The notes under the pieces are model-generated. The model made no database searches, was not told the origin of the DNA, and was given only the letters and a program-made list of their open reading frames with translations. From the IMG/VR virus record IMGVR_UViG_2675903313_000009: a stretch of 64,000 nt of DNA, one strand, 5' to 3'. Origin of the DNA: a virus (lineage: Duplodnaviria; Heunggongvirae; Uroviricota; Caudoviricetes). Both the position numbers and the translations under genes were made by a program. Below are positions 2,909 through 53,993 of the stretch, in pieces; position 1 is the first letter of the stretch; every line of letters starts with the position of its first letter.

Positions 2909-2999
2909 CGGTTGTAACTTATTGATAATGGCGGTCACAATTTGATTCTTTTCTATAAGAATCCGTTGATCGCCACTACTCCCCTACCATACCCGCAAT

Positions 3000-3780
3000 C
3001 ACATCCTTAAATATCAATAAGTTATAGTTGTTTATACAATCAAGAAAACAACTGAATAACAGATCAACGAAACATCAACGCTTTCACCCGATTTGGTCTA
3101 AAAAATTGACGTTTTCACACATCACTTCTTATACCCGTAACTCTACGCAGCAGACAGCGCCACAGCGTCCAATTTTCACCACAGACGACCCAACACACTA
3201 CCAATAAAAACACACGCTCAAAATCGCTCCCGTTGCGTTACACAACCATATAAACAACTTATTTTCAGGCATAACAAAACAACTAAATAACACAAATGCC
3301 ATTCCCAAAAACAACCAACCTCTTTATGGCAGGCTACCGAAAAGACCCACCTCTTCTCCCCAGGCTACCGGACAACCAACCTAACTTTCACAGGCAATCC
3401 GAAAACATTCATACGCGCGATACCCACGACACGCCATTACCCAAACAGCGAAGAAACACCAGAATCACTGAAACCCCAACGAAGCCTGTAACCGCAAGGT
3501 TTCTCTCAATCCCAAAAGACACGAAACATAACAATCACGGGAAACGCCATTACCCAATACACGAATAACTACAAAAGCCTTTCACACACTCCAGACAAAC
3601 AACTCAAACACAATAACGAAAGGAATCGCCCACCTGCCATTACTCCATACACGGAGAAGAACAATCACCAAAACGACGAGAACACCCCATAGAAGAACCA
3701 CCGCAAAACGAACGAAACCACAGACACCGACAGAGAAAACAACACACCCAATTCACCAACAGAAATAGTCGCCGTATAGA
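3000..3780 (+). other. CA-rich, G- and T-poor non-coding tract (candidate long non-coding transcript)
   Basis: About 780 bp with strong A+C excess on + strand; only a low-complexity ORF without RBS; internal degenerate repeats (caaccaacct..ggctaccg). Confidence 0.4.
3106..3134 (+). promoter_or_regulatory. Candidate sigma70-type promoter reading into the CA-rich tract
   Basis: TTGACG, 17-nt spacer, TTATAC. Confidence 0.35.
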
Positions 3781-3892
3781 ACGTTCTGGAAGGAGTGAGC
3801 ATTAACGCCTATAGAGAGGTTGAGACAGATAAAACACGAAGAAAACACAACATGTATAGCGAACAAGACAGGTATGTATAAGTGGGGAGGGA

Positions 3893-3916
3893 AGGAGGGG
3901 TGTCGCCTCCTTTTTC
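3893..3916 (+). terminator. Rho-independent terminator at end of CA-rich tract
   Basis: Stem aggagg/cctcct with 7-nt loop then TTTTT. Confidence 0.7.
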
Positions 3917-3980
3917 GTATTTATTCAACTCCTGATTTTCATCCCCCGTAACACCCCTACGGTCAGCCTTCGGTCCATAC

Positions 3981-4120
3981 AGGGAAAAGGCTGCATCCCG
4001 CTACAGAAACGGCTGGGTTGCCTTCGGGGAACGGCTGGAGGTTTTCAGGGAAACGGTCGAGTTGCCTATGTGGATTTCGGGAAAAGGCTCGATGCCGGTT
4101 CAGGAACGGTGGCGTACCGG
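3981..4120. repeat. Direct-repeat array A: about 6 units of ~21 bp with core GGGAAACGGC
   Basis: Units agggaaaaggctg / agaaacggctgg / ggggaacggctgg / agggaaacggtcg / gggaaaaggctcg / aggaacggtgg at about two helical-turn spacing. Confidence 0.6.
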
Positions 4121-4445
4121 TATAGCGAGAGGGAGAGTTGCGGCTACCCACCTGTAATGTGCGGGAAGAAGAGAGGCGCTCACGTGCAGGCAGACTAACT
4201 TACCGTTGGACTCCCTTTGAATGCCCAACTACAGCGTAATTGTGCCAGAGAGTCAGCGGGTCACAATCGATTTCAGTAGGTTTTCGGGGAGAGGATTATT
4301 CTGCTCACCAGCCACTTTCGGCCACTAAATCAGAATAATGTAAAAAGTGTACTCGGTACTAAACCTGAAAACTCACTGCCAAAACCACATTCACCGGAAT
4401 AAAATCCTTTTTCGCCTGTGCGTTATTGCGATAATAACACCATCA

Positions 4446-4466
4446 AGAAAACATGTTGTTTAAGGA
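4446..4466 (+). promoter_or_regulatory. Early operator motif copy
   Basis: agaaaacatgttgtttaagga, immediately upstream of ATG 4474. Confidence 0.5.
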
Positions 4467-4473
4467 TTGCTTT

Positions 4474-4803
4474 ATGTTTGCAAATATCGACATCAACCAA
4501 ATCAAGAAAATGACTCAAAAAGAGTTTGACCAGTTTTATGAGTTAGAAGGTTGGTCTTCCACGCTGATCAATTCGCGCTGGGTGCTTGAGCTGATGACTC
4601 GTGATGATGCTCCTGCTTTGATTATTTGCGACCTGGGTGATGATGCTGACTTTATGGATATGAGCGAATTTTGTGTGGACACATACAACCGCAGCCAGAA
4701 GTACTACTTCACATGCGATAGCGAGAATGACGTTATTTCTAAGGTCTATCTTCACCTTGTCCAGCATTGGGACGTTCAGGAGTTTCTTGAAGTATTCGAG
4801 TAA
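4474..4803 (+). CDS. Hypothetical small acidic protein
   Basis: ORF with AAGGA RBS; Asp/Glu-rich. Confidence 0.5.
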   Translation: MFANIDINQIKKMTQKEFDQFYELEGWSSTLINSRWVLELMTRDDAPALIICDLGDDADFMDMSEFCVDTYNRSQKYYFTCDSENDVISKVYLHLVQHWDVQEFLEVFE

Positions 4804-4928
4804 CCCCAACCAAAGCCAGCATTGCTGGCTTAATTTCTCTATAGCCGCAGGGAAGAACCTGCATATCGCTCATGCACCTGATCAATATGCTTTGTAGCCG
4901 TTTTCTTACTGGTATTATTTACGCCATT

Positions 4929-4950
4929 GAGAAAACAAGTTGTTTACGGA
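4929..4950 (+). promoter_or_regulatory. Early operator motif copy
   Basis: gagaaaacaagttgtttacgga upstream of ATG 4957. Confidence 0.5.
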
Positions 4951-4956
4951 GTTGTA

Positions 4957-5268
4957 ATGAAAAAATCATTGGTTCTTGGTCTGGACAAAGACCAGAAGAA
5001 AAAAGAGAAGCCTGCGCTGGTTGCTCAATTAACTTTGCTGGACATCGTTGCCAATGGAACCTCTATTCGTCTGTTCCGTGAAACAGCGGTGTCTTTCGAT
5101 AAAAACACCTTTACTCGTTATGTAATGAATGTTCGTCGCCAGCGTGGAAAAGGCTGGGTGGCATTTCAAAGAATGTGGCCGGAACATCAGCTCGAACTGG
5201 CTTTGATGGAAGTTAACCGCGTGGCCCAGCAAGAAATTCAGAGAGCATCAGTGATGGCAATAGCCTGA
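4957..5268 (+). CDS. Hypothetical small basic protein
   Basis: ORF with RBS; followed by terminator. Confidence 0.5.
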   Translation: MKKSLVLGLDKDQKKKEKPALVAQLTLLDIVANGTSIRLFRETAVSFDKNTFTRYVMNVRRQRGKGWVAFQRMWPEHQLELALMEVNRVAQQEIQRASVMAIA

Positions 5269-5302
5269 TAATGTGCAAGTGGTAATTAGTCGACCGTACG
5301 AC

Positions 5303-5331
5303 AGCCCCGCCATCCTTACGGGGCTTTTTTT
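5303..5331 (+). terminator. Rho-independent terminator
   Basis: Stem agccccg/cggggct followed by T7. Confidence 0.85.
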
Positions 5332-5336
5332 GTATT

Positions 5337-5352
5337 GTAAGTACATACTTAC
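5337..5352. promoter_or_regulatory. Palindromic TAAGTA..TACTTA motif copy
   Basis: gtaagtacatacttac, perfect palindrome. Confidence 0.4.
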
Positions 5353-5395
5353 GATCATAGAATAGAAAAATAACCAATACACTACGGAGAGTGAA

Positions 5396-5791
5396 ATGAC
5401 CGTTAAACGCGAAAAACTGACAGTTGATGTTTACTATGCCTCTGAAACCGCCGAAGGTAAGAATGTGGCAAAAATCACCGTTGTTACGTACAACACCGAA
5501 ACTGGTGCCGAAGTCCAGGCCAGTACGATCGTGCGTAAAGGTGATGCCTCCGGCGGCGAGTACGCGACTCAATACCAGTCCATTCTCGATGCAACTGACC
5601 CGCTGCTGCTGAAAATCGAGAACTACTTCCGCCAGGTTGATGAAGAGGTGTTTGAAACCATGATGAATATGGTTAACACCGTATTCGCCTCCAGCCTGAA
5701 TACCAACACTACCTGGATTGGTCAGTACGGCCTGCGCATTACCTCTGGCATTCCTGCCGACACCTTAATCCCTGAAAGCGTATTCGCTTAA
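5396..5791 (+). CDS. Hypothetical protein
   Basis: 131-aa ORF with GGAGAG RBS. Confidence 0.5.
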   Translation: MTVKREKLTVDVYYASETAEGKNVAKITVVTYNTETGAEVQASTIVRKGDASGGEYATQYQSILDATDPLLLKIENYFRQVDEEVFETMMNMVNTVFASSLNTNTTWIGQYGLRITSGIPADTLIPESVFA

Positions 5792-5835
5792 TCCTCTTTA
5801 AATGGCGCGTAAACCGCGCCATTTTATTAAGCCCG

Positions 5836-5856
5836 ATAACAATTTGTTTTCTGCCT
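5836..5856 (+). promoter_or_regulatory. Early operator motif copy
   Basis: gataacaatttgttttctgcc. Confidence 0.5.
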
Positions 5857-5908
5857 TATCTGATTTGTGAAAATGATTTCACTGAAGCAAGTTAATAAGG
5901 AAACCATC

Positions 5909-6283
5909 ATGGGACTTGATATCTATATCGAGACACAGCCTAAAAACGATCTGAATAACGAGGCATCCAGAAAGCAGGTTGCTTACTTCCGTAAGTTCAA
6001 TGCGCTCGTTGGGTGGATGGAGCGCAACGTAGGTGAAGTCGAAAATTGTGAGCTTTTAGAATTAACGATGAATGACATTTGTTTTCTGAAGGCTCATTTG
6101 ATGCACATAAACGAAAGTAATTGCGAAGAGTACTTGCCTACCCGGGAAGGTTTTTTCTTCGGCAGTCAGGAGTACGATGAAGGTTACTGGCATGATGTGG
6201 GGCAGTTGAAAGAGCTTGTGGAAGATCTGATTAAGAACCACGACTTTCACAATAACAGACTGACCTTCTGCGCCTGGTGGTAA
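5909..6283 (+). CDS. Hypothetical acidic protein
   Basis: ORF with TAAGGAAA RBS; start chosen at ATG 5909 rather than upstream GTG. Confidence 0.5.
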   Translation: MGLDIYIETQPKNDLNNEASRKQVAYFRKFNALVGWMERNVGEVENCELLELTMNDICFLKAHLMHINESNCEEYLPTREGFFFGSQEYDEGYWHDVGQLKELVEDLIKNHDFHNNRLTFCAWW

Positions 6284-6285
6284 AT

Positions 6286-6429
6286 ATGGGCGATTTCAAG
6301 AAACGCCTGAAGGAAAGAGCCGAGATGGTCAGAAAGCAAAACGCCTCTTCTGTCATCAGATACGCAAGGCAGTTTAGTCGCAACAACAAATCAGTTGAGG
6401 AAAAGATCCTTAGCGTAATCGGTCGATAA
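6286..6429 (+). CDS. Possible small basic protein (47 aa), translationally coupled
   Basis: ATG 3 nt after upstream stop; below ORF-track size cutoff. Confidence 0.3.
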   Translation: MGDFKKRLKERAEMVRKQNASSVIRYARQFSRNNKSVEEKILSVIGR

Positions 6430-6434
6430 TTATT

Positions 6435-6458
6435 AAGGCCATCAATGCTGGTGGCCTT
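6435..6458 (+). terminator. Hairpin, possible terminator
   Basis: Stem aaggcca/tggcctt; weak T tract. Confidence 0.4.
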
Positions 6459-6483
6459 AAATGACCATCCTGTTTCCCGCAGG

Positions 6484-6560
6484 CTAAAAACACCAACCTC
6501 TTACCTCCAGGCAACCGACAAACCCACCTGTTCCCGTCCGGCTACCGCAACTTTCCACTT
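6484..6560 (+). repeat. Second copy of CA-rich element (about 75% similar to 3312..3395)
   Basis: caccaacctctt..ggctaccg..ctttccac shared with the large CA-rich tract. Confidence 0.45.
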
Positions 6561-6596
6561 TGACGCCTTATTCGTACAACGATAATTAACACCAAC

Positions 6597-6620
6597 AAGA
6601 AAACAATTTGTTATTTACGA
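6597..6620 (+). promoter_or_regulatory. Early operator motif copy
   Basis: caagaaaacaatttgttatttacga upstream of ATG 6634. Confidence 0.5.
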
Positions 6621-6633
6621 TAAGGAATTAATC

Positions 6634-7116
6634 ATGAATTTTATCGCTACTGTAAACGCACCCGCACATGGCAATATCGCTGTAACGTTCTCTGACATTG
6701 AAAAACGAGTACTTGGTGCATGGCGCGACAATGAGACGGTAGAACTGTCAGCACAAGAAAAATGCATTATTGCACGCGACATCATTGGCAATCGTCGTTA
6801 CTCGCGGGTATTTGAGAAAGCGTATGTGGTAAATTCTGGATTCGGAACGTTCGTCTTTCCGGTGCGCTCCGGGCGATTCTGCCAGTCCAAGCTGATTGAG
6901 TTCGCTACGCAGATTTCTGTCTGGATTAAAACTCAATCGTCGTTCAAATTTTCCGACGATGAAGCAGTATCGCAGGGGATGCGGATCGCCAACAATGCGA
7001 TTAAATGCAAAAACATTACGTATACCGCTGGCGTTGATACATGGAAACTGTTTTGCGCTAACTTTATGCTGAATGTATACGCAAGCAACCGCATCCACAT
7101 CCTTGATGGCGTGTAA
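6634..7116 (+). CDS. Hypothetical protein
   Basis: 160-aa ORF with TAAGGAA RBS. Confidence 0.55.
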   Translation: MNFIATVNAPAHGNIAVTFSDIEKRVLGAWRDNETVELSAQEKCIIARDIIGNRRYSRVFEKAYVVNSGFGTFVFPVRSGRFCQSKLIEFATQISVWIKTQSSFKFSDDEAVSQGMRIANNAIKCKNITYTAGVDTWKLFCANFMLNVYASNRIHILDGV

Positions 7117-7124
7117 CTGAGAAG

Positions 7125-7147
7125 AGGGCCAGAAACGGCCCTTTCTC
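7125..7147 (+). terminator. Hairpin terminator after 6634..7116
   Basis: Stem agggcc/ggccct then TTCTCT. Confidence 0.5.
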
Positions 7148-7255
7148 TATAGCCACCAGCTGCCGCAGGGAAATTTTCAGAAACGGCGAGGAACGTATTC
7201 ATGAGCCGACGGGGAACGGCCAGGATTTTTTCGGGAAACGGCTGCATTCGCCTTT
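7128..7255. repeat. Direct-repeat array B: about 4 units with core G(G)AAACGGC
   Basis: cagaaacggcc / cagaaacggcg / ggggaacggcc / gggaaacggctg; same core as array A. Confidence 0.55.
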
Positions 7256-7660
7256 GTGTAGAAAAAACATCGGGAAGCTGGTGGAATCCAACCAGCGGTT
7301 GTCGGACAGGTGAGCGGGGAAAATTATGATGACTTTCGTCACCTGAGACATCCAGATTTCTTTCGTGGCATAATCACATACGTGATTAAGTGGTGTGATT
7401 ATGTGAAAAATCACGCGCACATAATACGCGAGCGGATACAGAACAAAACAAAATGCCGATCCGCACCGACAAATAAACGCGGATCACATAGCAAGACTAA
7501 AAGCCAATGATTAACCATACTCTATAGCGCAATATAACGCGTTTTAAGCGCGTTAATGTGTTAAGTAATGGGCATGTACTGGTAAGGATATAAAAGCGCG
7601 TCTATGGCGTTATTTTGGCGCTTATTTTTATGTTGTTGGAGTGAGTTAAAGACAATAAAA

Positions 7661-7680
7661 ACGCGCCATCATTGGCGCGT
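7661..7680. promoter_or_regulatory. GC-core palindrome acgcgcca..tggcgcgt
   Basis: 20-bp inverted repeat in AT-rich intergenic region. Confidence 0.3.
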
Positions 7681-7707
7681 TATGGTGGGAGTATTGGAAA
7701 CGAAAAA

Positions 7708-7726
7708 AGCGCCCATAGTGGGCGCT
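7708..7726 (-). terminator. 19-bp palindrome agcgcccatagtgggcgct with flanking A/T runs (copy 1); likely bidirectional terminator
   Basis: Perfect inverted repeat directly downstream of minus-strand gene 7732..7962. Confidence 0.55.
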
Positions 7727-7731
7727 CGATT

Positions 7732-7962
7732 TTATTTGTGTAAACTGATTTTAAATCCCATTTCTACAAACGCTTTTAGCATTAAAAATATATCAGCGTC
7801 GTTCACGTCTGCTTTTTTTCGCTCCTGGTCGCTCAATAAGTCAATTTTGTGCGTCGTTTCATCTATAAGCTCGACTGCGCGCCCAGCGTAACCAGCGATC
7901 CCAGCGATGCGATTAACATAATATTCATTATGGACGTTAACGCCAGCGATAAGAACAAACAT
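7732..7962 (-). CDS. Hypothetical small protein
   Basis: 76-aa ORF in AT-rich minus-strand block. Confidence 0.4.
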   Translation of the reverse strand: MFVLIAGVNVHNEYYVNRIAGIAGYAGRAVELIDETTHKIDLLSDQERKKADVNDADIFLMLKAFVEMGFKISLHK

Positions 7963-8235: not shown

Positions 8236-8895
8236 TTACGCTTTGAAAGCATCAGCTAAATAATTGTAGAAATCATTTTTAATGAAGCGATATTGCTGAG
8301 TACCAGCTTTCGCGCTCCCAGCTCCTTTGACTTTTTCAACAAGTCCAAGACGTTCGCAAAGATTGATCAACTGGTTGGCTTGAGTATAGCCAGCGTCCAA
8401 TTTAATTTCACACGCTTTTTTAGCTTCATTCATTAAATCGAAAACAGCGCCATTGGTGAACGTGTCGATCTCGTCGTTAATCATATCGATTAAAGCGAAT
8501 ACACGAGATCCTGACATATCAGCGATGGAATAAACGCATTTACCAGATTTAATTGATTTAACCAGATAAACCAGTTTTTCCAGAGAATAACTATTAGTCA
8601 TTGCATCACGGAAAAATACTTCTGGCGCTTGTTTGCTTGCTTTAATCGCATAGTAGAAAACAGAGCATAATTTTTCGTCTTCTACAGCGTTTACAACGTT
8701 GTTGATGAAGTAAGCAAGTTTCGTGGTCGCAGCTTGCATATTTGCTTTGTCTGTTTTAGTGTGCGTACCATTTTTATAATGTTCGTTATATGTTTGAGTC
8801 GCCAGATCTGCTTTTTCGCGCAGCTCGTCGGATACAATAGATGCAGCTTCAATGATGGACTTTTTAGAAATGATAACGTTAGCCATGATGGACAT
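8236..8895 (-). CDS. Hypothetical protein
   Basis: 219-aa ORF, AT-rich. Confidence 0.55.
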   Translation of the reverse strand: MSIMANVIISKKSIIEAASIVSDELREKADLATQTYNEHYKNGTHTKTDKANMQAATTKLAYFINNVVNAVEDEKLCSVFYYAIKASKQAPEVFFRDAMTNSYSLEKLVYLVKSIKSGKCVYSIADMSGSRVFALIDMINDEIDTFTNGAVFDLMNEAKKACEIKLDAGYTQANQLINLCERLGLVEKVKGAGSAKAGTQQYRFIKNDFYNYLADAFKA

Positions 8896-9181: not shown

Positions 9182-9706
9182 TTAAAATGGAAGGATTCGT
9201 TCAACCCAATCGAAGAAAACAAGTATTTTTCTGCCGTCTTCTAACTTAAGAGTGACCTGGCAAGCATCAACGCCTCTTGACACCCCTTCAATTTCACGAC
9301 CGTCTGCCATGTAGACCCTTATAGATTGGTCGTTTTGATAAGCCTTGCGACATATCGCAAAAAAGTCACGGCGTGATGGCTGATTGTCAACATAGTCTGG
9401 ATGTATTGTTAGCCTACCTTTGAACTCGCGAGCAATGCCATCGATTACACCTGATTCAATTGTGCTAATGCGCTCAAGTGGGAGTCTTATACGATTTTCT
9501 TTATCATATGGAAGCGGGCATAAATCTAGCTTATTGCGGGAAGGCATTGTCCCCTGAACGTACATGCAAAACACCTGACCGTCTTCAAGCGTGACTCTTA
9601 CAGGAATGTTGTTCTTCCGCCAGAACATAAGTATGTTTTCAGCATGTTCGTAGTCTCGCGGCCAGACTTCAGCCGGTATGCCGTAGGTGATGTCCAATGT
9701 TCTCAT
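9182..9706 (-). CDS. Hypothetical protein
   Basis: 174-aa ORF; overlaps upstream gene by 4 nt. Confidence 0.5.
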   Translation of the reverse strand: MRTLDITYGIPAEVWPRDYEHAENILMFWRKNNIPVRVTLEDGQVFCMYVQGTMPSRNKLDLCPLPYDKENRIRLPLERISTIESGVIDGIAREFKGRLTIHPDYVDNQPSRRDFFAICRKAYQNDQSIRVYMADGREIEGVSRGVDACQVTLKLEDGRKILVFFDWVERILPF

Positions 9707-10951: not shown

Positions 10952-11551
10952 TTAATCATTCAATAATCTATATTTTCTTTTGATTAAATCTTCACCTTTT
11001 TTGGTGAACACAAAACCAAATTGCGATTTTTTGTTCAGCCTAAGTACTCTGTTATCCAACGCATCGGTTGATGGAATCAATGTTTGATCATCTATCCAAT
11101 TAAGTAGCGTAAGAAAGTTCAGCAGCCTCAACGTTGTTGTGCGAAGCTCTTTCGATATATTTTCAATGCTGGCAATTCGTCTTTCTTTTTTCTCAGGTGG
11201 TACAGATAATTGTTCTTGAGGTTTCGTGGATAGATAATCAATTTCGTTTGCTGCATCGAATGATATGTGTGGCGTAATTTTGCTAAAAAAGCCTTTCGCT
11301 GACTCACTTGATAATAAACCAGACCTATTCATATCGTTTGTTATTCTGTACAGGAGTGGACTGTGTTTCATTTCAGGATAACGTTGATAAAAGTTAAGCA
11401 ATTCAAAAGCAGCATTAGCGCCAACAAGAAAATCAGAAGGATCGCTGACTTTCCAGAAAGAATGATTTTTCTTAGCGCCAGTGGTGTCAACAAATGATAA
11501 TTCTTTTAACCAACTCATGATGTGCTCCTTTCTAACAAGTGAGCACATCAT
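10952..11551 (-). CDS. Hypothetical protein
   Basis: 199-aa ORF, low GC. Confidence 0.5.
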   Translation of the reverse strand: MMCSLVRKEHIMSWLKELSFVDTTGAKKNHSFWKVSDPSDFLVGANAAFELLNFYQRYPEMKHSPLLYRITNDMNRSGLLSSESAKGFFSKITPHISFDAANEIDYLSTKPQEQLSVPPEKKERRIASIENISKELRTTTLRLLNFLTLLNWIDDQTLIPSTDALDNRVLRLNKKSQFGFVFTKKGEDLIKRKYRLLND

Positions 11552-11583: not shown

Positions 11584-11862
11584 TTACGGCAACCTGCTCA
11601 GTATTTCCTCTAGATCTTTTTTTGTCATATTGGAGTTCTCATAGATGCGCATGATTTTCTCACGCGTCTTAGCGGAAACCCCAACGGCAGATGTGACTTT
11701 GTCAAATTCAGCCATAGTCATCGTCTCCAGAATGGCATTGATAACTTCAGCCTTAGACATCTTGATTTTTTTCTCTTTGAGTTTTATTTGAAATTTTCCA
11801 AGTTTTTCATTGGCTTTATCAGACAATGCCACTTGGCAATAAGTTGTTTTTTTTTCGCTCAT
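11584..11862 (-). CDS. Hypothetical small protein
   Basis: 92-aa ORF overlapping helicase stop. Confidence 0.45.
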   Translation of the reverse strand: MSEKKTTYCQVALSDKANEKLGKFQIKLKEKKIKMSKAEVINAILETMTMAEFDKVTSAVGVSAKTREKIMRIYENSNMTKKDLEEILSRLP

Positions 11863-13470: not shown

Positions 13471-13489
13471 TAAGTAAGTGATTACTTAG
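13471..13489. promoter_or_regulatory. Palindromic TAAGTA..TACTTA motif copy in divergent promoter region
   Basis: taagtaagtgattacttag. Confidence 0.4.
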
Positions 13490-14187
13490 TGGATTGTAGC
13501 AATAAAATGGATGTAAAAATCACGATTTTGCAGGTTGATGTTGCCAACCTTCGCCCGAATACCTGGAACACCAATTCGGTTGGTGCGCAGAATTTTGAAA
13601 AACTGAAAGGTTCTATCGAAAAATTGGGCTTTTTTAAGCCAATTTTGGCTCGTGAACTTGAAGATGGATTTTTTGAAATCCTCGGCGGCGAACATCGCTG
13701 GCGTGCTGCTATTGAGCAAGGAATTTCAACGGTTCCAGTGCTTTCTGTGGGCAAAATTAGCGATGTCGTAGCTAAACAGATGTCACTGGTGGACAACGAG
13801 CGATACGGTGAAGACGACCAAATCGCATTGCAACGCTTCATTGAAGAAATTCAGTCAGAACTTGACTATCAACTGTCTGAAATCGCCCCGTATGACGACG
13901 AAATCTCGATGGTTTTAGCAAAAGAGGCGGCAATCGACCTTGAAGCACTGGAGGCGTTGTCTCGTGGTAGTGATGAGCCTGTCGATACCGACAAACGAGA
14001 GAAAACCGAACGTGTGGGTGCGGAACATCAGACCATGCGCTTCAAAGTAACTTTCGATGCGTCAGATCGTGTTGCAGAAACCATAAAAAACATCATCAAA
14101 GAGCAGGATATTAACACCGGTAATGAAATGGAGAACGCTGGTGAGGCTCTGGTGTGGCTGGTCGACTACTACAAGGAGCGTATGTAA
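13489..14187 (+). CDS. ParB N-terminal-domain (ParB/Srx-like) protein
   Basis: GGEHRWRAA resembles ParB box II; start codon uncertain (GTG 13489 or ATG 13507). Confidence 0.7.
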   Translation: MDCSNKMDVKITILQVDVANLRPNTWNTNSVGAQNFEKLKGSIEKLGFFKPILARELEDGFFEILGGEHRWRAAIEQGISTVPVLSVGKISDVVAKQMSLVDNERYGEDDQIALQRFIEEIQSELDYQLSEIAPYDDEISMVLAKEAAIDLEALEALSRGSDEPVDTDKREKTERVGAEHQTMRFKVTFDASDRVAETIKNIIKEQDINTGNEMENAGEALVWLVDYYKERM

Positions 14188-14855
14188 TGACCAAAAAGTT
14201 TGAAATCGTATATCGCGACCCGGCAGATCTTATTCCCTATGAGATGAATGCCAAAAAGCATGATGAACAGCAGATCCGAGATCTAGCCGCAGCCATTAAA
14301 AAGCGCGGATTTGACCAGCCAATTACGGTCGATAAGAACGACGTAATTATTACTGGCCACGGCCGCCGTGAGGCTGCAATTTTTGCTGGACTTGAGCGCG
14401 TACCGGTTATTGTTCGCGATGATCTTAGTGATGACGAGGTTCGTGCGAAGCGCCTTGAAGATAACCGACTTGCCAGCATTGATTACGATGCAATTAAGCT
14501 ACAGAAAGAGCTTGAGTCGCTTGTTCTGGACGATATCGAGGTTTTCGGCTTTGAAGAGCGTGAGTTGAATGTTCTCGTTGGCAGCATGACAGAAGAAATG
14601 GACACCGACTCGCTAGTTATCGATCTTGGCGAAGAAACTAAACGACAGAAGGATGAACACACCGAGATCAGTCGTGAAGTTGCAGCGGAAGAAGTACGTG
14701 TTGTCGACGTATTGGGCTTTAAAACGCTTCCTGCTGGCTCTGCCATTGTTGTTGGTGATTTGCTTGCCCACATGGAAGAAATGACGGGAGAAAGCGGGGT
14801 AGACGCATTTGTGGCATATGCGGAGAAGATCTCTTCCGGGGAGATGGCTGCATGA
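14187..14855 (+). CDS. Second ParB N-terminal-domain protein
   Basis: GHGRREAA motif; start overlaps upstream stop (TAATG). Confidence 0.7.
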   Translation: MTKKFEIVYRDPADLIPYEMNAKKHDEQQIRDLAAAIKKRGFDQPITVDKNDVIITGHGRREAAIFAGLERVPVIVRDDLSDDEVRAKRLEDNRLASIDYDAIKLQKELESLVLDDIEVFGFEERELNVLVGSMTEEMDTDSLVIDLGEETKRQKDEHTEISREVAAEEVRVVDVLGFKTLPAGSAIVVGDLLAHMEEMTGESGVDAFVAYAEKISSGEMAA

Positions 14856-15517
14856 GCAAATACATCATCAACGTATCGTTTCAGACACGCGTAAATAAAA
14901 CCACGCGCACGTTGGAAATCGCTGAGTCGTTCGGGCTTGGCCTGGACGAAAAAGAGTGGACGCTTTACGACAATCTGGAGCTGGATGTGAAGCAGGGCGA
15001 TGTGGTGTACATCACCGGCCAATCCGGTTCCGGCAAATCCGTTGTGCTGCGCGAGTTGCAACGACAGATGAAGGATGAAGGGCTGTCTGTAGCCTCCATC
15101 GATGATTTTACCTTCGATAATGAGGTTAACGTCATCGATCAGTTGGGCAAAACGACCAGTGATGCGCTTGGGTTGTTATCTATGGCTGGTCTGAACGATG
15201 CATATCTGTTTGTTCGCAAGCCTTCTGAAATGTCAGACGGCCAGAAATATCGTCTCAAGATTGCCAAACTGATTGAGTCAGGCGCTAAAGTATGGGCTGC
15301 TGACGAGTTCGGCGCTGTTCTCGACCGTGTAACCGCTCAGGTTGTGGCGTCTAACCTCCAGCGTGCCGCTCGAAAGGTTGGTGCGACGGTAATGGTGGCG
15401 ACGACTCACGAAGACCTGAAGAACGCGCTGCGCCCGGATATGCAGATCACCAAGCACTACAAAGAACGCGTGAAGGTGGAATATCACAATGGTAGTCATG
15501 ATGAGGTCCATTCATGA
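14852..15517 (+). CDS. Stand-alone ABC-type ATPase
   Basis: Walker A GQSGSGKS, signature-like SDGQ, Walker B AADEFGAVLD, H-loop ATTHE. Confidence 0.7.
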   Translation: MSKYIINVSFQTRVNKTTRTLEIAESFGLGLDEKEWTLYDNLELDVKQGDVVYITGQSGSGKSVVLRELQRQMKDEGLSVASIDDFTFDNEVNVIDQLGKTTSDALGLLSMAGLNDAYLFVRKPSEMSDGQKYRLKIAKLIESGAKVWAADEFGAVLDRVTAQVVASNLQRAARKVGATVMVATTHEDLKNALRPDMQITKHYKERVKVEYHNGSHDEVHS

Positions 15518-16404
15518 CGGACATCATCATTAAACGCTACCGCCCTGAAGAGTTTCCGCGTCATCTGGACTTTCTGGAGCGAATGACTGTTACAAAGGGA
15601 ACTGTAGAGGACTGGCACGCTCTTAAGTCGCTTCACTACAAAACAGACGGCAAACCTTTCGCGCCAACTTACTATCGCTGCGAACTTGATGACCGTCTGG
15701 TGGGCGTCGTGGTTATGGCTTACCCGAAACTACTGTTGGCACCTCGCCACCGCATGTTTCCTAAGTTGAAACCAACCACTAATACCACCGTGGCTAACCA
15801 GTACTGGGGTCGGTACGTGAATAACAACTTTGCGGTGATCAGTCGCTCAGTTGTGGATACTCAGTATCGTGGCGTAGGCGTCTCTTATCGAATGATTAAC
15901 CTGGTTAGCAGGATGCATGACCGGCCAATCATTGAGATCCAGTCCTCGATGAGCAAATACAATCCCTTCGCCATGAAAGCAGGGTTTAAGTTCATCCGCC
16001 CTGAGCGACCGAAGAGCTATGAAAGTGCACTGCGTGTATTCCAGCGCCATTTCCGTTCCGACCCTGGTGATAACGAGGCGATCGTCAAAGAGTTGTTCGC
16101 AATGAGCGAGTCTCGTCGTCGCCGTGCACTGCGTGATCTGGTGGCGGACTACCACAAGAACAGTTCCCTGGCAAAAGCTGGGCGGAATCGTGGCACGACG
16201 ATTCAGGACATTGCCGACAGTCTGGTGGACGAGGCCAGCATTGTGAAGCTGCTCAAGGACATTCACAACCTGAGCTTTACGTCTCCGTTGTATGGTGTGT
16301 ACCGAAACCCTGACTTTGGTCGTCGACTGCCTGACACGCTGCCACTGCTGGCATTCGACAAACAACCTTTGGATAAACCGTTAGAAATTGCTTTACCGGC
16401 ATAA
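15514..16404 (+). CDS. Hypothetical protein with possible GNAT acyltransferase core
   Basis: YRGVGVS resembles GNAT motif A (R-x-x-G-x-G/A); C-terminal 150 aa unassigned. Confidence 0.45.
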   Translation: MTDIIIKRYRPEEFPRHLDFLERMTVTKGTVEDWHALKSLHYKTDGKPFAPTYYRCELDDRLVGVVVMAYPKLLLAPRHRMFPKLKPTTNTTVANQYWGRYVNNNFAVISRSVVDTQYRGVGVSYRMINLVSRMHDRPIIEIQSSMSKYNPFAMKAGFKFIRPERPKSYESALRVFQRHFRSDPGDNEAIVKELFAMSESRRRRALRDLVADYHKNSSLAKAGRNRGTTIQDIADSLVDEASIVKLLKDIHNLSFTSPLYGVYRNPDFGRRLPDTLPLLAFDKQPLDKPLEIALPA

Positions 16405-16413
16405 GGATTTGCC

Positions 16414-16680
16414 ATGACGTTAACCGACAAACAAAAGGACATCATCAAAACGCTCAATCTCGGTTATGAGCGAGGTCATCTACTTGATCTGGACGAATTG
16501 CTTGAAGTTTTGCCGTACAAGACAACAAAGCAAAGTATCCAGTTCTCAATTCGCGCTCTGATAAAAAAGGGGCTGGTGGAGAAAGGGCATACGCGCCAAC
16601 GCAGTGACAATCGCTATCACCGCCGGACTCTTGGGTTAACCACTTTAGGTCGAGCCAAAGCGAAGTTACTGGTGATGTAA
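16414..16680 (+). CDS. Small putative DNA-binding (winged-helix-like) protein
   Basis: 88-aa basic ORF with helix-turn-helix-like segment. Confidence 0.4.
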   Translation: MTLTDKQKDIIKTLNLGYERGHLLDLDELLEVLPYKTTKQSIQFSIRALIKKGLVEKGHTRQRSDNRYHRRTLGLTTLGRAKAKLLVM

Positions 16681-16877: not shown

Positions 16878-17510
16878 ATGACGGTCGAAAAAGACGAGGT
16901 AAAAACTCGCCTGACACCAGCGGAGTGGGCCGAAGCTGAAGCCAAATGGACGTCAGGCGAATATACACTCTCAAAGCTGGAGGAAGAGTACGGCATTCGT
17001 CGTGAAACACTCTCCAGACATTTCAAAAAGCGAGGATTAGAGAAAGGCGCGGACTCTGTTGGGAAGATGGTTCGTGAGTCTCTTAAATCTGACGCAGAGC
17101 TTCGCGCTAAAGCCCGTGCGGAAAAGATAGAAGAACGTCGTACACGTTATGACGGCTGGGCGTATGCGTTGGGGCAGATGGTGATGGTCGAAGTCACTAC
17201 GGCCAAACGTGAGGGTAAGCCTTTAGGGGCGATTGAGGATTCTCTCAAGAGCTTACAGAGAGCCAGTAATACTCTTGCAAAATGCTTTGAAGTTTCGTCC
17301 AAAGCATTGGGCATGGATCATGCGGAAAATGACGAGGAAGAAATTCCGAACCTGGTATTTGGTGAGCTTACGCCTTCCCAGGTGGCGAAATTACGTCAGG
17401 AAGACGACGAGCCTGAAATCATCGATGACGAATTGCTTGAGACGTTGGAAGAAGAAGCTCTAAGCGAATTTGATGCGACAGATGATGGAAGTGAAGGGGA
17501 GGACGAATAA
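16878..17510 (+). CDS. Putative terminase small subunit
   Basis: HTH-like N-terminus, acidic C-terminus; directly upstream of large terminase. Confidence 0.6.
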   Translation: MTVEKDEVKTRLTPAEWAEAEAKWTSGEYTLSKLEEEYGIRRETLSRHFKKRGLEKGADSVGKMVRESLKSDAELRAKARAEKIEERRTRYDGWAYALGQMVMVEVTTAKREGKPLGAIEDSLKSLQRASNTLAKCFEVSSKALGMDHAENDEEEIPNLVFGELTPSQVAKLRQEDDEPEIIDDELLETLEEEALSEFDATDDGSEGEDE

Positions 17511-47377: not shown

Positions 47378-48046
47378 ATGACCAAGATCTTTGTGGTTGG
47401 CGGCACAAAGGGCGGGCCTGGCAAATCCACCGTTGCCCAGCAAATTGCCGTTTGCCTGAAAGTCAAAAAGAAGAAGAAGGTTTATATTACCGATATAGAT
47501 ATTCAGCGCACGACAACGAGCTGGTGTGAAGACCGTCGACAGAACGAAGACCTTGAGCTGATTCCTTTTGCATACGTTCAGGATGACATCATTAAGCACC
47601 TAAAATCGCTTCAGGGTAGAGCTGAGTTTGTAGTGGTAGATGCTGGTGGCTTCGACTCCGAAATTCAGCGACAAGCGATGCTGATGGCTGACGTTATCAT
47701 TATCCCGCTGCGTCCTAAGCGTCGTGATTTGAAATCTTTACGTGACATCGATCCTATTATCGACAATGTTCGCAATGTAAACGATAAAGTGAAGGTCCGC
47801 GCGGTCATGAACCAGTGCCCGGCTTTGCCATCACAAGTGTCTCGCATTCTGGCGGCTAAAGAGATTGTTGAGACGTTTGGCATCGAGTCTGCGCCAGTCA
47901 ATCTATATAACCGCAACGTCTATGATGATGCGGAAGAGTCTGGTCGTTCTATCTTTGAAATGACCGGTAGCGAGCGCGACAAAAAGGCGGAAGCCGAGTT
48001 TGAAGAATTTGTAGATTATCTGTTGAGTCTGGAGGAAGAAGAATAA
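47378..48046 (+). CDS. parA: ParA/MinD-family partition ATPase
   Basis: Deviant Walker A GGTKGGPGKST; 222 aa. Confidence 0.85.
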   Translation: MTKIFVVGGTKGGPGKSTVAQQIAVCLKVKKKKKVYITDIDIQRTTTSWCEDRRQNEDLELIPFAYVQDDIIKHLKSLQGRAEFVVVDAGGFDSEIQRQAMLMADVIIIPLRPKRRDLKSLRDIDPIIDNVRNVNDKVKVRAVMNQCPALPSQVSRILAAKEIVETFGIESAPVNLYNRNVYDDAEESGRSIFEMTGSERDKKAEAEFEEFVDYLLSLEEEE

Positions 48047-48405
48047 TGTCCATGAAAATGGGTGACCTAGCAAAGCGCAAAGAGCCTGATGCACCGGCTA
48101 AGAACACAACTCCTTTGCGCCAACCAGTCAGACCACAGGGACGCCCGACTCGTGGCAAAGAGAAAATTAAAAGCCGCACAATGTCACTGGAGGACGAATA
48201 CTTCGAACTGCTGGAGATGATGAAGTTCATCCCTCGCTTCGAGAAGTTCACTCGTTCTGACGTGATTCGTGCTGCTATTTTCCATCTTGCGGAGAAGACA
48301 CCGCAGGAAATCGAGGACATCGTGAAACTTAACGAGGCGATCACAGCTGCCGATGTCACGATGCGTACCGATGAAATCAAACGCGAGTTGATGAAGAAAG
48401 GTTAA
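48046..48405 (+). CDS. Small partition partner (ParG/ParB-like centromere-binding candidate)
   Basis: 119-aa basic protein coupled to parA (ATGTCC overlapping stop). Confidence 0.5.
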   Translation: MSMKMGDLAKRKEPDAPAKNTTPLRQPVRPQGRPTRGKEKIKSRTMSLEDEYFELLEMMKFIPRFEKFTRSDVIRAAIFHLAEKTPQEIEDIVKLNEAITAADVTMRTDEIKRELMKKG

Positions 48406-51389: not shown

Positions 51390-52730
51390 ATGACCGAACT
51401 TTGCCATACAGGACGCGGGCTGTCCGAAGAGTTTGATGAAGATTTCCAGAACAGACTGACGGCATATTTTTGTCGTGATCACGAGTTTCTTACTCGTGCG
51501 GGAGATCTGGTTGTGCCTAGCCAATTTGCCAATGCGGCCAATGCCATATTGGTTAATATGGTTTCGGGCTATTACCGTATGTACAAGAGCGCGCCTTCTT
51601 CATCTGCGATTCTGGATATGCTTAAGCGCGCGAAACGCGATAAGACCATCCGTGAGGAACTCTTCCCGGATGTTGTTGCTGCGTTTAAGCGCATCCTTGC
51701 AGAAAAATTGTCTGATACCACGTACATGGTTGACCAGGTATCCACATTCGCAAAAAGTGTAGCGTTTGATGATGCTCTGATTAAAGCTGCTGAACTGAAA
51801 GAGAAGGGCGACTTTCAGGGGGCGATGGCAATCATGGCCAAGGTTCAGCAGATAGGCTCGAACGAAGCGACCGGAATCTATGACTACTACACCTCCGCAA
51901 GTGAGCGATTGAAAGCGCGTGAATATGAGGCTTCAGAGGAGTATGTGCCAAACAGCATTACAACTGGACTCCCTCTGCTCGATAGGTTGCTGTACCAAAA
52001 AGGCTGGGCGAAGCGTGAAATGGTGCTCTTCATGGGGTTCGCTAAATCCGGCAAATCGACCGCAATGGGTGAGTTTTCCATAAACGCAACGCTTGCTGGC
52101 TACAATGTTCTGTATCTCTCGCTGGAGGTTCACACCACCATTTTATCCGACCGTTTTGATGCAAGATTGTCGGAGACAGAAATGTCCAAGCTGGTGGAAC
52201 GGCGCGATGAGGTTCATCGTAAGTTGGCAGAGTTGGGAGCCACGAAGGGGATTGGTAGTTTGTGGGTGGTTGAGCGTCCGTCAGGAAGTATGTCACCGGC
52301 AGATCTGGACCGTATGCTTAACAGCATGAAAGCCAACGGCATGGTGCCTGACATGGTTGTTGTCGACTACGCAGATTTGATGCGTGCCAGTTATGACCTT
52401 CGTGATGATCGCGCCAACATTCGTAGTATCTACACCGATTTACGTGCTCTTTATGACAAGCATAACGTTGCTGGGATTACGGCATCGCAGACAAACCGTG
52501 AAGGTGGCGCGTCAGAAGTTGCCACAATGATGCACGCTGCCGACAACATCGAAAAAGTACGTATTGCTGACCTGGTAATAACGATCAACAAAACCGAAGA
52601 AGAAGAAGCGAAAGGAGAGGCTCGTCTCTACTTTGCTGGTTCACGTAACCAGCAGGGAGGGATCAGCATTCGCGTTAAACAAAACCTCGAACAAATGCGC
52701 TTCATTGAGCGAATCTTAGACGTTACCTAA
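51390..52730 (+). CDS. DnaB-like replicative helicase
   Basis: Walker A GFAKSGKST, Walker B MVVVDYADLM; 446 aa. Confidence 0.8.
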   Translation: MTELCHTGRGLSEEFDEDFQNRLTAYFCRDHEFLTRAGDLVVPSQFANAANAILVNMVSGYYRMYKSAPSSSAILDMLKRAKRDKTIREELFPDVVAAFKRILAEKLSDTTYMVDQVSTFAKSVAFDDALIKAAELKEKGDFQGAMAIMAKVQQIGSNEATGIYDYYTSASERLKAREYEASEEYVPNSITTGLPLLDRLLYQKGWAKREMVLFMGFAKSGKSTAMGEFSINATLAGYNVLYLSLEVHTTILSDRFDARLSETEMSKLVERRDEVHRKLAELGATKGIGSLWVVERPSGSMSPADLDRMLNSMKANGMVPDMVVVDYADLMRASYDLRDDRANIRSIYTDLRALYDKHNVAGITASQTNREGGASEVATMMHAADNIEKVRIADLVITINKTEEEEAKGEARLYFAGSRNQQGGISIRVKQNLEQMRFIERILDVT

Positions 52731-52736
52731 AAAATA

Positions 52737-52759
52737 AGCGTGGAGAACACCTCCACGCT
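52737..52759 (+). terminator. Hairpin after helicase gene
   Basis: Stem agcgtggag/ctccacgct. Confidence 0.45.
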
Positions 52760-52877
52760 TGATTCATTGGTGAAACAACTTTTCTTTTGCCAAACCACAA
52801 AAGAAAAACACATGAACCTTTATATTATATCAACATTTAGGTTGGTCACAATATTGCCTATTAAAAGTGGAATTATC

Positions 52878-53993
52878 GTGAGCGAGCTGAAAGAGCTAAT
52901 TACCGAATTAGATTTTGAACAATGGTTGGACACTGAAGGTATCGTTTATCGACGTGGAGGCGTGAGTGCTCGCGGTCGTGAAGTGAATATCAAGGAGTGT
53001 CCGGTATGTGGCAGCTCCAACTGGAAGGTATATTTCAATCTGACCAGTGGCGTCGGCAAATGCTTTGCTGGTGATCATCCCGAAGAGATTCAGTTCAATA
53101 AGCTGATCTTCCTCAAGCACTACAGCGGTAAATCACGACGACAGTTCGAGGAATATGTGCAGAACGCGCTGATCTCACAAGGATGGGCGCCGAAGAAGGA
53201 AGAGGTCGTGCTGGCCAGCAAGGTTGAACTCGAAGGGCCAGTAGCTCTCCCTCGACATTACGAACTCCCCATTGACGGTCGTCTTCCTGATTATCTGGTG
53301 GAGCGCCATATCTCCCCGGATCTGGCCAAATACTTTGATCTGCGTTACTGCGTCGAAGGCAAGCACGCATACGTCGATCCGTACACAGACCAGGTCAAAG
53401 GGCAGGTGTTTGATATGCGCATCCTGATACCGGTTTACGATCTGGATGGCGTGATGAAGACCTTCCAGGGGCGTGACATTACCGGTGCAGCAGAACGTCG
53501 CTACCTCTTTCCTATGCAGCTTCCAGCTTCAGGTAGGTTTCTCTACAACGGCCATAATGCAGTCGGCAAACAGACTGTAGTTGTCTGTGAGGGGGCGTTC
53601 GATGTTATGGGGGTCAAACGAGCTATTTTTGACGAAGAAACATTACGTGATTACGTGGAACCAATAGGAACGTTCGGGATGCATCTATCTGGTAACACCA
53701 CTCAGGATGCAGAAGATCAGCTGGGCGCGTTCCTGACGCTCAAGGCGCGTGGGCTACGTAATGTGATTATGATGTGGGATAGTGAAAAGCAGGCTATACG
53801 CAACACTATGGCCGCAGCCAGGCGACTGAGCAGTATTGGTCTTAATGTGAAAATTGCATGTTTGGGCGAGGAAGGACTCGACCCCGGCGATGCGACCCCG
53901 GGGCAGATTATCAAAGCCTACTATTGCGCAAAACCTTACTCACGACAGCTTGAACTTTTAAGCAAGGTAAAAGGCATAGCTGCATTAGTTTGA
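52878..53993 (+). CDS. DNA primase (zinc-finger plus TOPRIM)
   Basis: CPVCGSS..CFAGDH zinc-binding motif; TOPRIM-like VVVCEGAFDVMG; start codon uncertain. Confidence 0.75.
   Translation: MSELKELITELDFEQWLDTEGIVYRRGGVSARGREVNIKECPVCGSSNWKVYFNLTSGVGKCFAGDHPEEIQFNKLIFLKHYSGKSRRQFEEYVQNALISQGWAPKKEEVVLASKVELEGPVALPRHYELPIDGRLPDYLVERHISPDLAKYFDLRYCVEGKHAYVDPYTDQVKGQVFDMRILIPVYDLDGVMKTFQGRDITGAAERRYLFPMQLPASGRFLYNGHNAVGKQTVVVCEGAFDVMGVKRAIFDEETLRDYVEPIGTFGMHLSGNTTQDAEDQLGAFLTLKARGLRNVIMMWDSEKQAIRNTMAAARRLSSIGLNVKIACLGEEGLDPGDATPGQIIKAYYCAKPYSRQLELLSKVKGIAALV

Follow-up and report, generated by a model that had tools for sequence, protein, structure and literature searches.

Two arrays of a short direct repeat, here called array A and array B, lie on either side of a block of small early genes in the Caudoviricetes virus record IMGVR_UViG_2675903313_000009 of IMG/VR, of which we analysed one stretch of 64,000 nucleotides, referred to below as the window. 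In the reading that we consider best, with a rough probability of 0.4, these are orphan iteron-like arrays that would be bound by a protein encoded by the element itself and are not the iterons of its RepA. Few noncoding features of the SSU5/pHCM2 family of phage-plasmids are as well conserved as these arrays, which are unannotated in every record inspected and of which we found no description in the accessible papers. What is new here is the presence of orphan iteron-like arrays that are conserved across a large, clinically relevant phage-plasmid family. The units of both arrays and the hairpins preceding them are as follows.

3982..4110, plus strand: array A, six units, spacing 22,22,22,31,22
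3982-3991, plus strand: array A unit 1, GGGAAAAGGC
4004-4013, plus strand: array A unit 2, CAGAAACGGC
4026-4035, plus strand: array A unit 3, GGGGAACGGC
4048-4057, plus strand: array A unit 4, GGGAAACGGT
4079-4088, plus strand: array A unit 5, GGGAAAAGGC
4101-4110, plus strand: array A unit 6, CAGGAACGGT
7166..7255, plus strand: array B, three canonical units, spacing 33,22
7164-7172, plus strand: conserved half-unit preceding the canonical units of array B, CGCAGGGAA
7178-7187, plus strand: array B canonical unit, CAGAAACGGC
7211-7220, plus strand: array B canonical unit, GGGGAACGGC
7233-7242, plus strand: array B canonical unit, GGGAAACGGC
7250-7252, plus strand: GCC after the array B units
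3889..3916, plus strand: terminator-like hairpin and T-run before array A, 10-pair stem, T5, 65 bp upstream of the array
7125..7146, plus strand: terminator hairpin of the 160-aa gene, GGGCC AGAAAC GGCCC, then TTTCTCT

Searching the window for GGGAAACGGC with at most one mismatch returned 11 matches as compared to 3.3 expected, a number reached in none of 100 shuffles. The looser core G[AG]AA[AC]GG has 22 matches on the plus strand, ten of which fall within two clusters, with core starts at 3984, 4006, 4028, 4050, 4081 and 4103 (spacing 22,22,22,31,22) for cluster A, and at 7132, 7180, 7213 and 7235 (spacing 48,33,22) for cluster B. The minus strand of the window has no clusters of this core, and the two clusters are the only ones in the 64 kb; the same holds for the 110 kb that we examined of p15ODDR, a 98%-identical comparison plasmid of 112.8 kb. 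In shuffled sequence, any cluster of at least three matches arose in 3 of 500 cases, and none was larger than three. The fuller unit consensus is TTCGGGAAACGGCTG, which can also be written TTCGGGAAACGGCnRG, with GGGAAACGG as its short form. These counts agree with an earlier note on this DNA in that two direct-repeat arrays are real, have all their units in one orientation, about six of them in array A, and flank the small-gene block. Two of its details need correction: the period is 22 bp and not ~21 bp, and array B, given as about four units, holds three canonical ones. The unit counted there as the first of array B (7130-7139, core at 7132) is the loop of the hairpin that terminates the preceding gene; given this location, and since other lineages have GAAACGC here, this unit is unlikely to be a site. 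Near array B there are also degenerate half-units at 7168 (GGGAAAT) and 7272 (GGGAAGC). Tandem Repeats Finder did not report the arrays, because just ~10 of each 22 bp are conserved.

The window represents an SSU5/pHCM2-type phage-plasmid, an assignment made from sequence searches. Over 3400-7800, its sequence shares 98% identity with Escherichia phage CMS-2020a and with Cyrano (pLF82), and is also related to Klebsiella phage-plasmids and to Salmonella phage SSU5, while the noncoding stretch upstream of the small genes matched 839 records of a plasmid collection at 66-98% identity, with Klebsiella, Escherichia, Enterobacter, Salmonella (pHCM2), Citrobacter and Cronobacter among the hosts. SSU5/pHCM2-like elements are common in Klebsiella, E. 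coli, Salmonella including Typhi, Enterobacter and Citrobacter, and according to the literature phage-plasmids often carry resistance genes. Cyrano has been described as a ciprofloxacin-inducible siphovirus present at ~5.5 copies per cell, in a study in which virion reads were not separable from plasmid reads (PMC9928086). A short conserved cis element together with a named candidate binder offers a direct experimental handle on replication, segregation or early-gene control. At its left end the window begins inside metG, positions 22-1503 corresponding to a full methionyl-tRNA synthetase homologue; in related records metG adjoins an ApbC/Mrp-like ATPase and an S24 peptidase.

The arrays recur in related genomes, in that we found them in Salmonella, Citrobacter, Enterobacter and Kluyvera as well as in ~40 IMG/VR contigs, in which position, orientation and spacing are kept. 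In pHCM2, one Citrobacter plasmid and one Enterobacter plasmid, which are ~67% identical to the window in this region, array A has exactly the spacing seen in the window, and array B has the spacing 34,22; in a Kluyvera genome, array A reads 22,21,22,31,22. Alignment of the E. coli, Salmonella, Citrobacter, Enterobacter and Kluyvera lineages showed invariant cores separated by spacers that are substituted with nearly no insertions or deletions, and the array B block TTTTCGGGAAACGGC is near-invariant in all lineages. Across the family, adjacent units are 22 bp apart in 177 instances, 31 bp in 34, 33 bp in 15 and 34 bp in 19, every other distance occurring at most three times. A typical Klebsiella plasmid keeps the core, with one unit fewer in array A and a shifted register, and two far more distant relatives, a K. 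ozaenae plasmid and a Moellerella (Morganellaceae) plasmid, have GGGAAACGG units at both places, fewer in number and differently spaced. The K. ozaenae plasmid belongs to a different replicon type and its ParB-like protein is just 48% identical; the Moellerella unit has the consensus GGTTTCGGGAAACGG, a partial palindrome (GTTTC-GG-GAAAC). According to these alignments, the array pattern is a phylogenetic footprint. When we scanned for the pattern elsewhere, the viral collection returned family members together with unrelated 22-bp iteron origins, and the genome collection was swamped by microsatellites and high-GC chance matches. Beside array B of the Moellerella plasmid pW18-2-b (locus L251, ~10990-11090, reverse strand), six copies of a different repeat, YTCATTTGAK, lie in AT-rich DNA, a region that looks origin-like. 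Some Klebsiella plasmids of 200-430 kb carry just the first ~450 bp of the noncoding region that ends in array A, comprising its promoter and the repeats R1 described below (window 2922-3370), without the arrays.

Several observations lead us to conclude that the arrays act as DNA. No open reading frame over the arrays is conserved between the window and its relatives, and since the period is 22 bp, no peptide repeat is encoded. The arrays have no match in Rfam, and RNAalifold on divergent copies gave covariation terms of +0.15 for array B and -0.04 for array A, the sole well-supported structure in the array B alignment being the terminator hairpin. The spacing, exact to the base pair and in multiples of ~10.5-11 bp, suits proteins binding side by side on one face of the helix. 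Taken together, conserved cores, diverged spacers, distances quantised at 22 or 31-34 bp, noncoding character and the lack of RNA covariation make it probable that the arrays are protein-binding DNA sites. To this extent the general proposal of the earlier note stands, and it is the specific roles it suggested that fare less well, as detailed below.

Candidate binders were sought as proteins that persist wherever the arrays persist. In a 35-kb stretch of the Moellerella plasmid, the 160-aa, 103-aa and FljA-like proteins were not detectable, and the 131-aa, 219-aa and 92-aa proteins, the helicase, a pair of ParB_N-domain proteins, an 88-aa protein and the small terminase subunit TerS were present. 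In the window, the 92-aa and 88-aa proteins are encoded at 11584-11862 and 16414-16680. The 160-aa protein has a confident AlphaFold2 (AF2) model, for which no structural neighbour was found. The 219-aa protein is encoded as follows.

8236..8895, minus strand: gene of the 219-aa protein, helical N-terminal domain and C-terminal winged helix, 1 kb from array B

In every lineage examined, this gene is the nearest conserved gene to array B. The AF2 model (predicted local distance difference test score, pLDDT, of 85) has a helical N-terminal domain followed by a canonical winged helix at residues 131-204. Within the putative recognition helix, residues T171, Q172, Q175, L179 and G184 are invariant, and this holds even for the homologue from Moellerella, whose overall identity is 34%. 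We see a parallel between this invariance and that of the DNA core. We tentatively name the 219-aa protein as the candidate binder.

In the mechanism that we propose, each array would be a row of ~12-15 bp sites (TTCGGGAAACGGCTG) placed two or three helical turns apart on one face of the helix, and the terminator-like hairpins located upstream would keep the arrays largely free of transcription. A sequence-specific protein encoded by the element, with the 219-aa protein as first choice, could then fill the phased sites cooperatively, side by side. If this protein oligomerised via its helical N-terminal domain, arrays A and B might be paired, with the 3.2-kb early block forming a loop between them, much as in iteron handcuffing or at P4 ori-crr. 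The earlier note had considered a handcuffing locus plausible, and pairing of the two arrays by a protein other than RepA is a reasonable mechanical idea. Of the possible uses of the arrays, control over phage-mode replication, as a second replication function, or over the bracketed early block seems the likeliest. A replication-related role, as a second origin or in its control, is a possibility that we put forward with reserve. In its most specific version, the arrays and the 219-aa protein would constitute a hitherto unrecognised second replication or control locus, bipartite and P4 ori/crr-like, that serves the switch from RepA-driven to phage-mode replication or, by pairing copies, holds this switch off; we regard this version as decidedly doubtful. 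If the proposal were true, an orphan iteron system, including an initiator or organiser of a new type, would be present in elements that are medically widespread.

Some further observations qualify this reading. The winged-helix fold is common, and both the 219-aa gene and the arrays are part of the core genome, such that the evidence for the 219-aa protein as binder is circumstantial. Searching its model against a viral structure library gave no significant match, and no independent genomic contexts were found for the ParB-like, 160-aa and 219-aa proteins, all three of which are confined to this plasmid family. As to the definition of an iteron replicon, the direct-repeat period is present, with spacings of 22,22,22,31,22 and 33,22, but the repeats are unlike the RepA iterons and no Rep gene adjoins the arrays. 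The latter had been stated in the earlier note and was confirmed, as no Rep domain of Pfam or NCBIfam was found in the open reading frames searched at 1.6-11.6 kb. As regards DnaA boxes and an AT-rich unwinding element, reading through the array flanks (GC only 0.39-0.42) revealed no good TTATNCACA match, although no dedicated scan was made.

The remaining features of the region are listed here.

2909..4473, plus strand: noncoding region 1, with a promoter-like element, an A+C-rich stretch, R1, R2, the hairpin and array A
3107-3135, plus strand: conserved promoter-like element TTGACG-17-TTATAC
3308-3400: repeat family R1, ACCCACCTCTTnnnnnCAGGCTACCG, three copies at ~32-bp spacing
3433, 3546, 3636: repeat family R2, GCCATTACYCMATACACGGAGAAGAAC, 3-5 copies in the A+C-rich stretch
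4474..7116, plus strand: early small-gene block, six genes between the arrays
4474-4803, 4957-5268, 5396-5791, 5909-6283, 6286-6429, 6634-7116, plus strand: the early genes
6462..6548, plus strand: second R1 triplet (blastn 78% over 64 nt, E 2e-8)
7117..7731: noncoding region 2, 615 bp, where plus- and minus-strand transcription converge; opens with array B
1589, 1636, 4446, 4930, 5838, 6598, 16797, 16822, 47327, 51355: sites of the palindrome AGAAAACAnnTTGTT

Within noncoding region 1, the part from 2922 to 4143 is conserved family-wide and has array A at its end. Its A+C-rich stretch (about 3000-3870, ~800 bp) is noncoding and conserved, lies behind the promoter-like element at 3107-3135, shows a GC skew of ~-0.5 and an AT skew of ~+0.5 on the plus strand, and ends in a G-rich run and the hairpin at 3889-3916. 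A long, unstructured noncoding RNA is one possibility for it, a giant Rho-loading site another. Both this stretch and the R1 repeats are recognisable even in Moellerella. Each R1 triplet lies ~580 bp upstream of one GGGAAACGG array, the first of array A and the second of array B. A hairpin at the position preceding array A is predicted in all four lineages folded, and clearly beats shuffled sequence in the window version only. The early-block genes matched no Pfam families and all fall into PHROGs of unknown function. Most of them stand behind a promoter-like element with the palindrome AGAAAACAnnTTGTT, located between the -10-like element and the start codon; the palindrome, which is also found upstream of terS, parA and the DnaB-like gene, has 11 matches in the window as compared to 0.18 expected and looks like the dispersed operator of a master repressor, as in P1. 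Besides array B, noncoding region 2 holds a conserved CCTGAGMCATCCAGAT block and several hairpin terminators, and array B is followed by inverted repeats TAATCAC/GTGATTA (four half-sites, 7369-7416), which another DNA-binding protein probably recognises. The window contains 13 copies of Chi (GCTGGTGG) as compared to 1.3 expected, 11 of them on the plus strand; three copies lie around array B (6447, 7153 on the minus strand, and 7277), and the copy at 7153 (CCACCAGC) is kept in most lineages.

The arrays might be transcription-factor sites or boundary elements, at which a regulator activates, represses or insulates the early block, and would then take no part in replication or segregation. It is exactly the operator-controlled early genes that they bracket, each array lies 20-65 bp downstream of a terminator-like hairpin, and R1 is found directly upstream of the -35 element of the promoter of the 160-aa gene as well as in noncoding region 1; moreover, winged-helix regulators of the OmpR/PhoB and LytTR types are generally known to bind direct repeats with periods of 10-11 or 21-22 bp. 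On the other hand, 250-400 bp separate array A from the nearest promoter-like site downstream of it, array B is downstream of the last gene, six phased sites exceed what most operators need, and the early promoters already carry a different operator. We consider such a regulatory role unlikely.

The arrays might also be partition centromeres, that is dispersed parS-like sites for the products of the par operon, which we judge improbable. The ParA and ParB-like genes that the earlier note had mentioned are present, the latter at two places, one of them being the operon itself.

47378-48046: parA, type Ib, 40 kb from the arrays
48046-48405: 119-aa ParB-like partner, ribbon-helix-helix-like (strand-helix-helix pattern after a basic tail, weak aCcr1 match)

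The centromere of this operon is unassigned, in that neither the window nor the K. ozaenae relative has a repeat array beside it. The partner looks ribbon-helix-helix-like, and proteins only 48% identical overall share its putative DNA-reading strand, KSRTMS(L/I)EDE, which parallels the invariant DNA core; in addition, direct-repeat arrays shielded from transcription are, as generally known, typical of centromeres. Against this stand the 40 kb that separate the arrays from parAB and the par promoter, which carries the palindrome AGAAAACAAGTTGTT and not the GGGAAACGG repeat and has no GRAAMGG array upstream of parA, whereas centromere-binding proteins of type Ib usually autoregulate via centromere-like repeats. 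AGAAAACAAGTTGTT is also found before most early genes, terS and the DnaB-like gene. A spacing of 22 bp is, by general knowledge, long for ribbon-helix-helix dimers. The co-occurrence of arrays and par is uninformative because both belong to the family core, and the 119-aa partner is family-restricted and thus offers no independent genomic context. The proposal of centromere-like sites is neither supported nor excluded. In the two ParB_N-domain proteins (13489-14855), the match to Spo0J, ParB and Noc is confined to the N-terminal domain of these; we rejected them as array binders, because both are acidic (pI 4.5-4.6) and alignment showed no conservation of the helix-turn-helix region. They do not qualify as ParB of a canonical ParB-parS system of the CTPase-clamp kind, in which an N-terminal CTPase domain is combined with a helix-turn-helix reading a palindromic parS. 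Their genes are part of a module upstream of terS (13489-16404) that further encodes an ABC-type ATPase and a basic 296-aa protein; the Cyrano annotation for the homologue of the latter is a fusion of an ABC-type ATPase with an acetyltransferase domain. The module is not a partition system and may be a DNA-modification or anti-defence module.

It is very unlikely that the repeat acts in RNA, with the arrays transcribed as the tail of the A+C-rich RNA and as a 3' untranslated region and serving as sponge or landing pad for an RNA-binding protein such as CsrA or the FljA-family protein of the element. All units are oriented as transcription, several contain AGGGA or CAGGA and thereby resemble CsrA sites, and a gene of the FljA family is located 2 kb away. 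Furthermore, unit B3 (7205-7220) has an 11-mer, GAGCCGACGGG, in common with the 5' leader of E. coli fliC, a leader sequence that we verified in 3187 E. coli genomes. However, a terminator-like hairpin precedes each array, the Rfam and covariation results given above are negative, only 3-4 of the nine units fit a CsrA site, and RNA sponges need neither a spacing that is exact to the base pair across lineages nor one quantised in helical turns. A link of the arrays to the fliC leader and FljA was rejected: the 11-mer is real, but by estimate such a match is expected ~1.5 times by chance in this comparison, and it has no counterpart outside the E. coli lineage of the plasmid. The FljA-like protein itself (9182-9706, minus strand, 174 aa) matches Pfam Flag1_repress, the FljA family of phase-1 flagellin repressors, with an E value of 5e-81 and includes a weak Hfq-like stretch. 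The 35 kb searched of the Moellerella plasmid yielded no detectable counterpart. The protein may allow the phage-plasmid to silence host flagellin.

Terminase recognition sites (pac or cosB-like) bound by the small terminase subunit had been offered in the earlier note as well, and are most improbable on position.

16878-17510: terS, with the arrays 9.6-12.9 kb upstream

Small terminase subunits do bind arrays of short repeats, the R sites of lambda cosB contain GGAAACG, and TerS appears to have an N-terminal helix-turn-helix, but known pac and cos sites lie in or beside terS.

The same note had proposed plasmid-type replication or copy-control iterons, which is not borne out for the Rep protein of this element. 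Its RepA, of P1/RepFIB type, is encoded beyond the window (p15ODDR 52089-53144), ~36 kb from the arrays; 21-bp iterons of its own, CTCTMTAGTGGATA (also given as CTCTATAGTGGATA), flank it in two sets, with GATC-rich DNA adjoining and nearby sequences that we read as DnaA boxes. The replicon region of p15ODDR has no GRAAMGG cluster. For IncpKPHS1 plasmids, published iterons lie downstream of repA (PMC6735626), and we judge these to be RepA iterons and not the arrays described here. GC skew gave a monotonic curve and was uninformative for locating the origin. That the arrays are extra sites for RepA, in incA-like copy control or handcuffing, is hardly credible even though 22-bp repeats in two clusters would fit what is generally known of P1 oriR/incA and RepFIB, since CTCTMTAGTGGATA has nothing in common with GGGAAACGGC, words of the CTCTATAG type are no more frequent near the arrays than chance predicts, and a relative whose replicon was typed to another cluster has the arrays unchanged.

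We finally compare the arrays, read as orphan iteron-like sites for an element-encoded protein, with known systems; plasmid iterons, P4 ori/crr, dispersed centromeres and lambdoid iterons each share traits with them, and none fits as a family. In N15 and pSM19035, centromere sites lie far from the par genes or at several places around them. The N15 sopC-like and pSM19035 omega sites resemble our arrays in occurring at several places far from par, in phage or plasmid control regions, but they match the operator of the par promoter, which the arrays do not, and their units differ in size, being 7-bp heptads in pSM19035 and single palindromes in N15. Lambdoid prophages (IMG/VR contigs L021, L067 and L107) have five 22-bp iterons, GGAAACGGCA-N4-YGCCGAAT, inside an O-type initiator gene. 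The 22-bp period, the GGAAACGGC core and a GCC ~6 bp downstream, as seen in several units of arrays A and B, are shared, a resemblance partly forced by the search pattern used, and other iteron origins caught by the scan have the same 22-bp architecture. The lambdoid iterons differ in that they sit within the initiator gene, and downstream of them come GATC- and AT-rich DNA and a word, TGTGGATAA, that we take for a DnaA box. With phmmer, no homologue of the lambda O-type initiator was detected among the open reading frames of the window and of three p15ODDR stretches. No iterons were found within the 249-aa gene that lies upstream of the DnaB-like helicase, or next to it.

In the satellite phage P4, ori and crr are two noncoding clusters of a short repeat several kb apart, which one phage protein binds via its winged-helix domain, looping the DNA. 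Arrays A and B are likewise two noncoding clusters of one repeat several kb apart; the P4 repeats, however, are octamers in both orientations, and their binder is the alpha primase-helicase, whereas here primase and DnaB-like helicase are separate proteins encoded 45 kb away. Theta-plasmid iterons (P1 oriR/incA, RepFIB, F ori2/incC, and R6K gamma with distant alpha/beta sites) share with the arrays a core of ~10-12 bp per 22-bp unit, occasional extra gaps of one helical turn, and two clusters of the same orientation a few kb apart, a configuration that suggests pairing or looping. They differ in that here no Rep gene lies between or beside the arrays, the RepA of the element uses other iterons elsewhere, and reading the flanks, without a dedicated scan, revealed no DnaA boxes or clear unwinding element. 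The binders would differ as well: the Rep proteins of theta plasmids have a WH1-WH2 fold, whereas the candidate proposed here has a single winged helix behind a helical domain.

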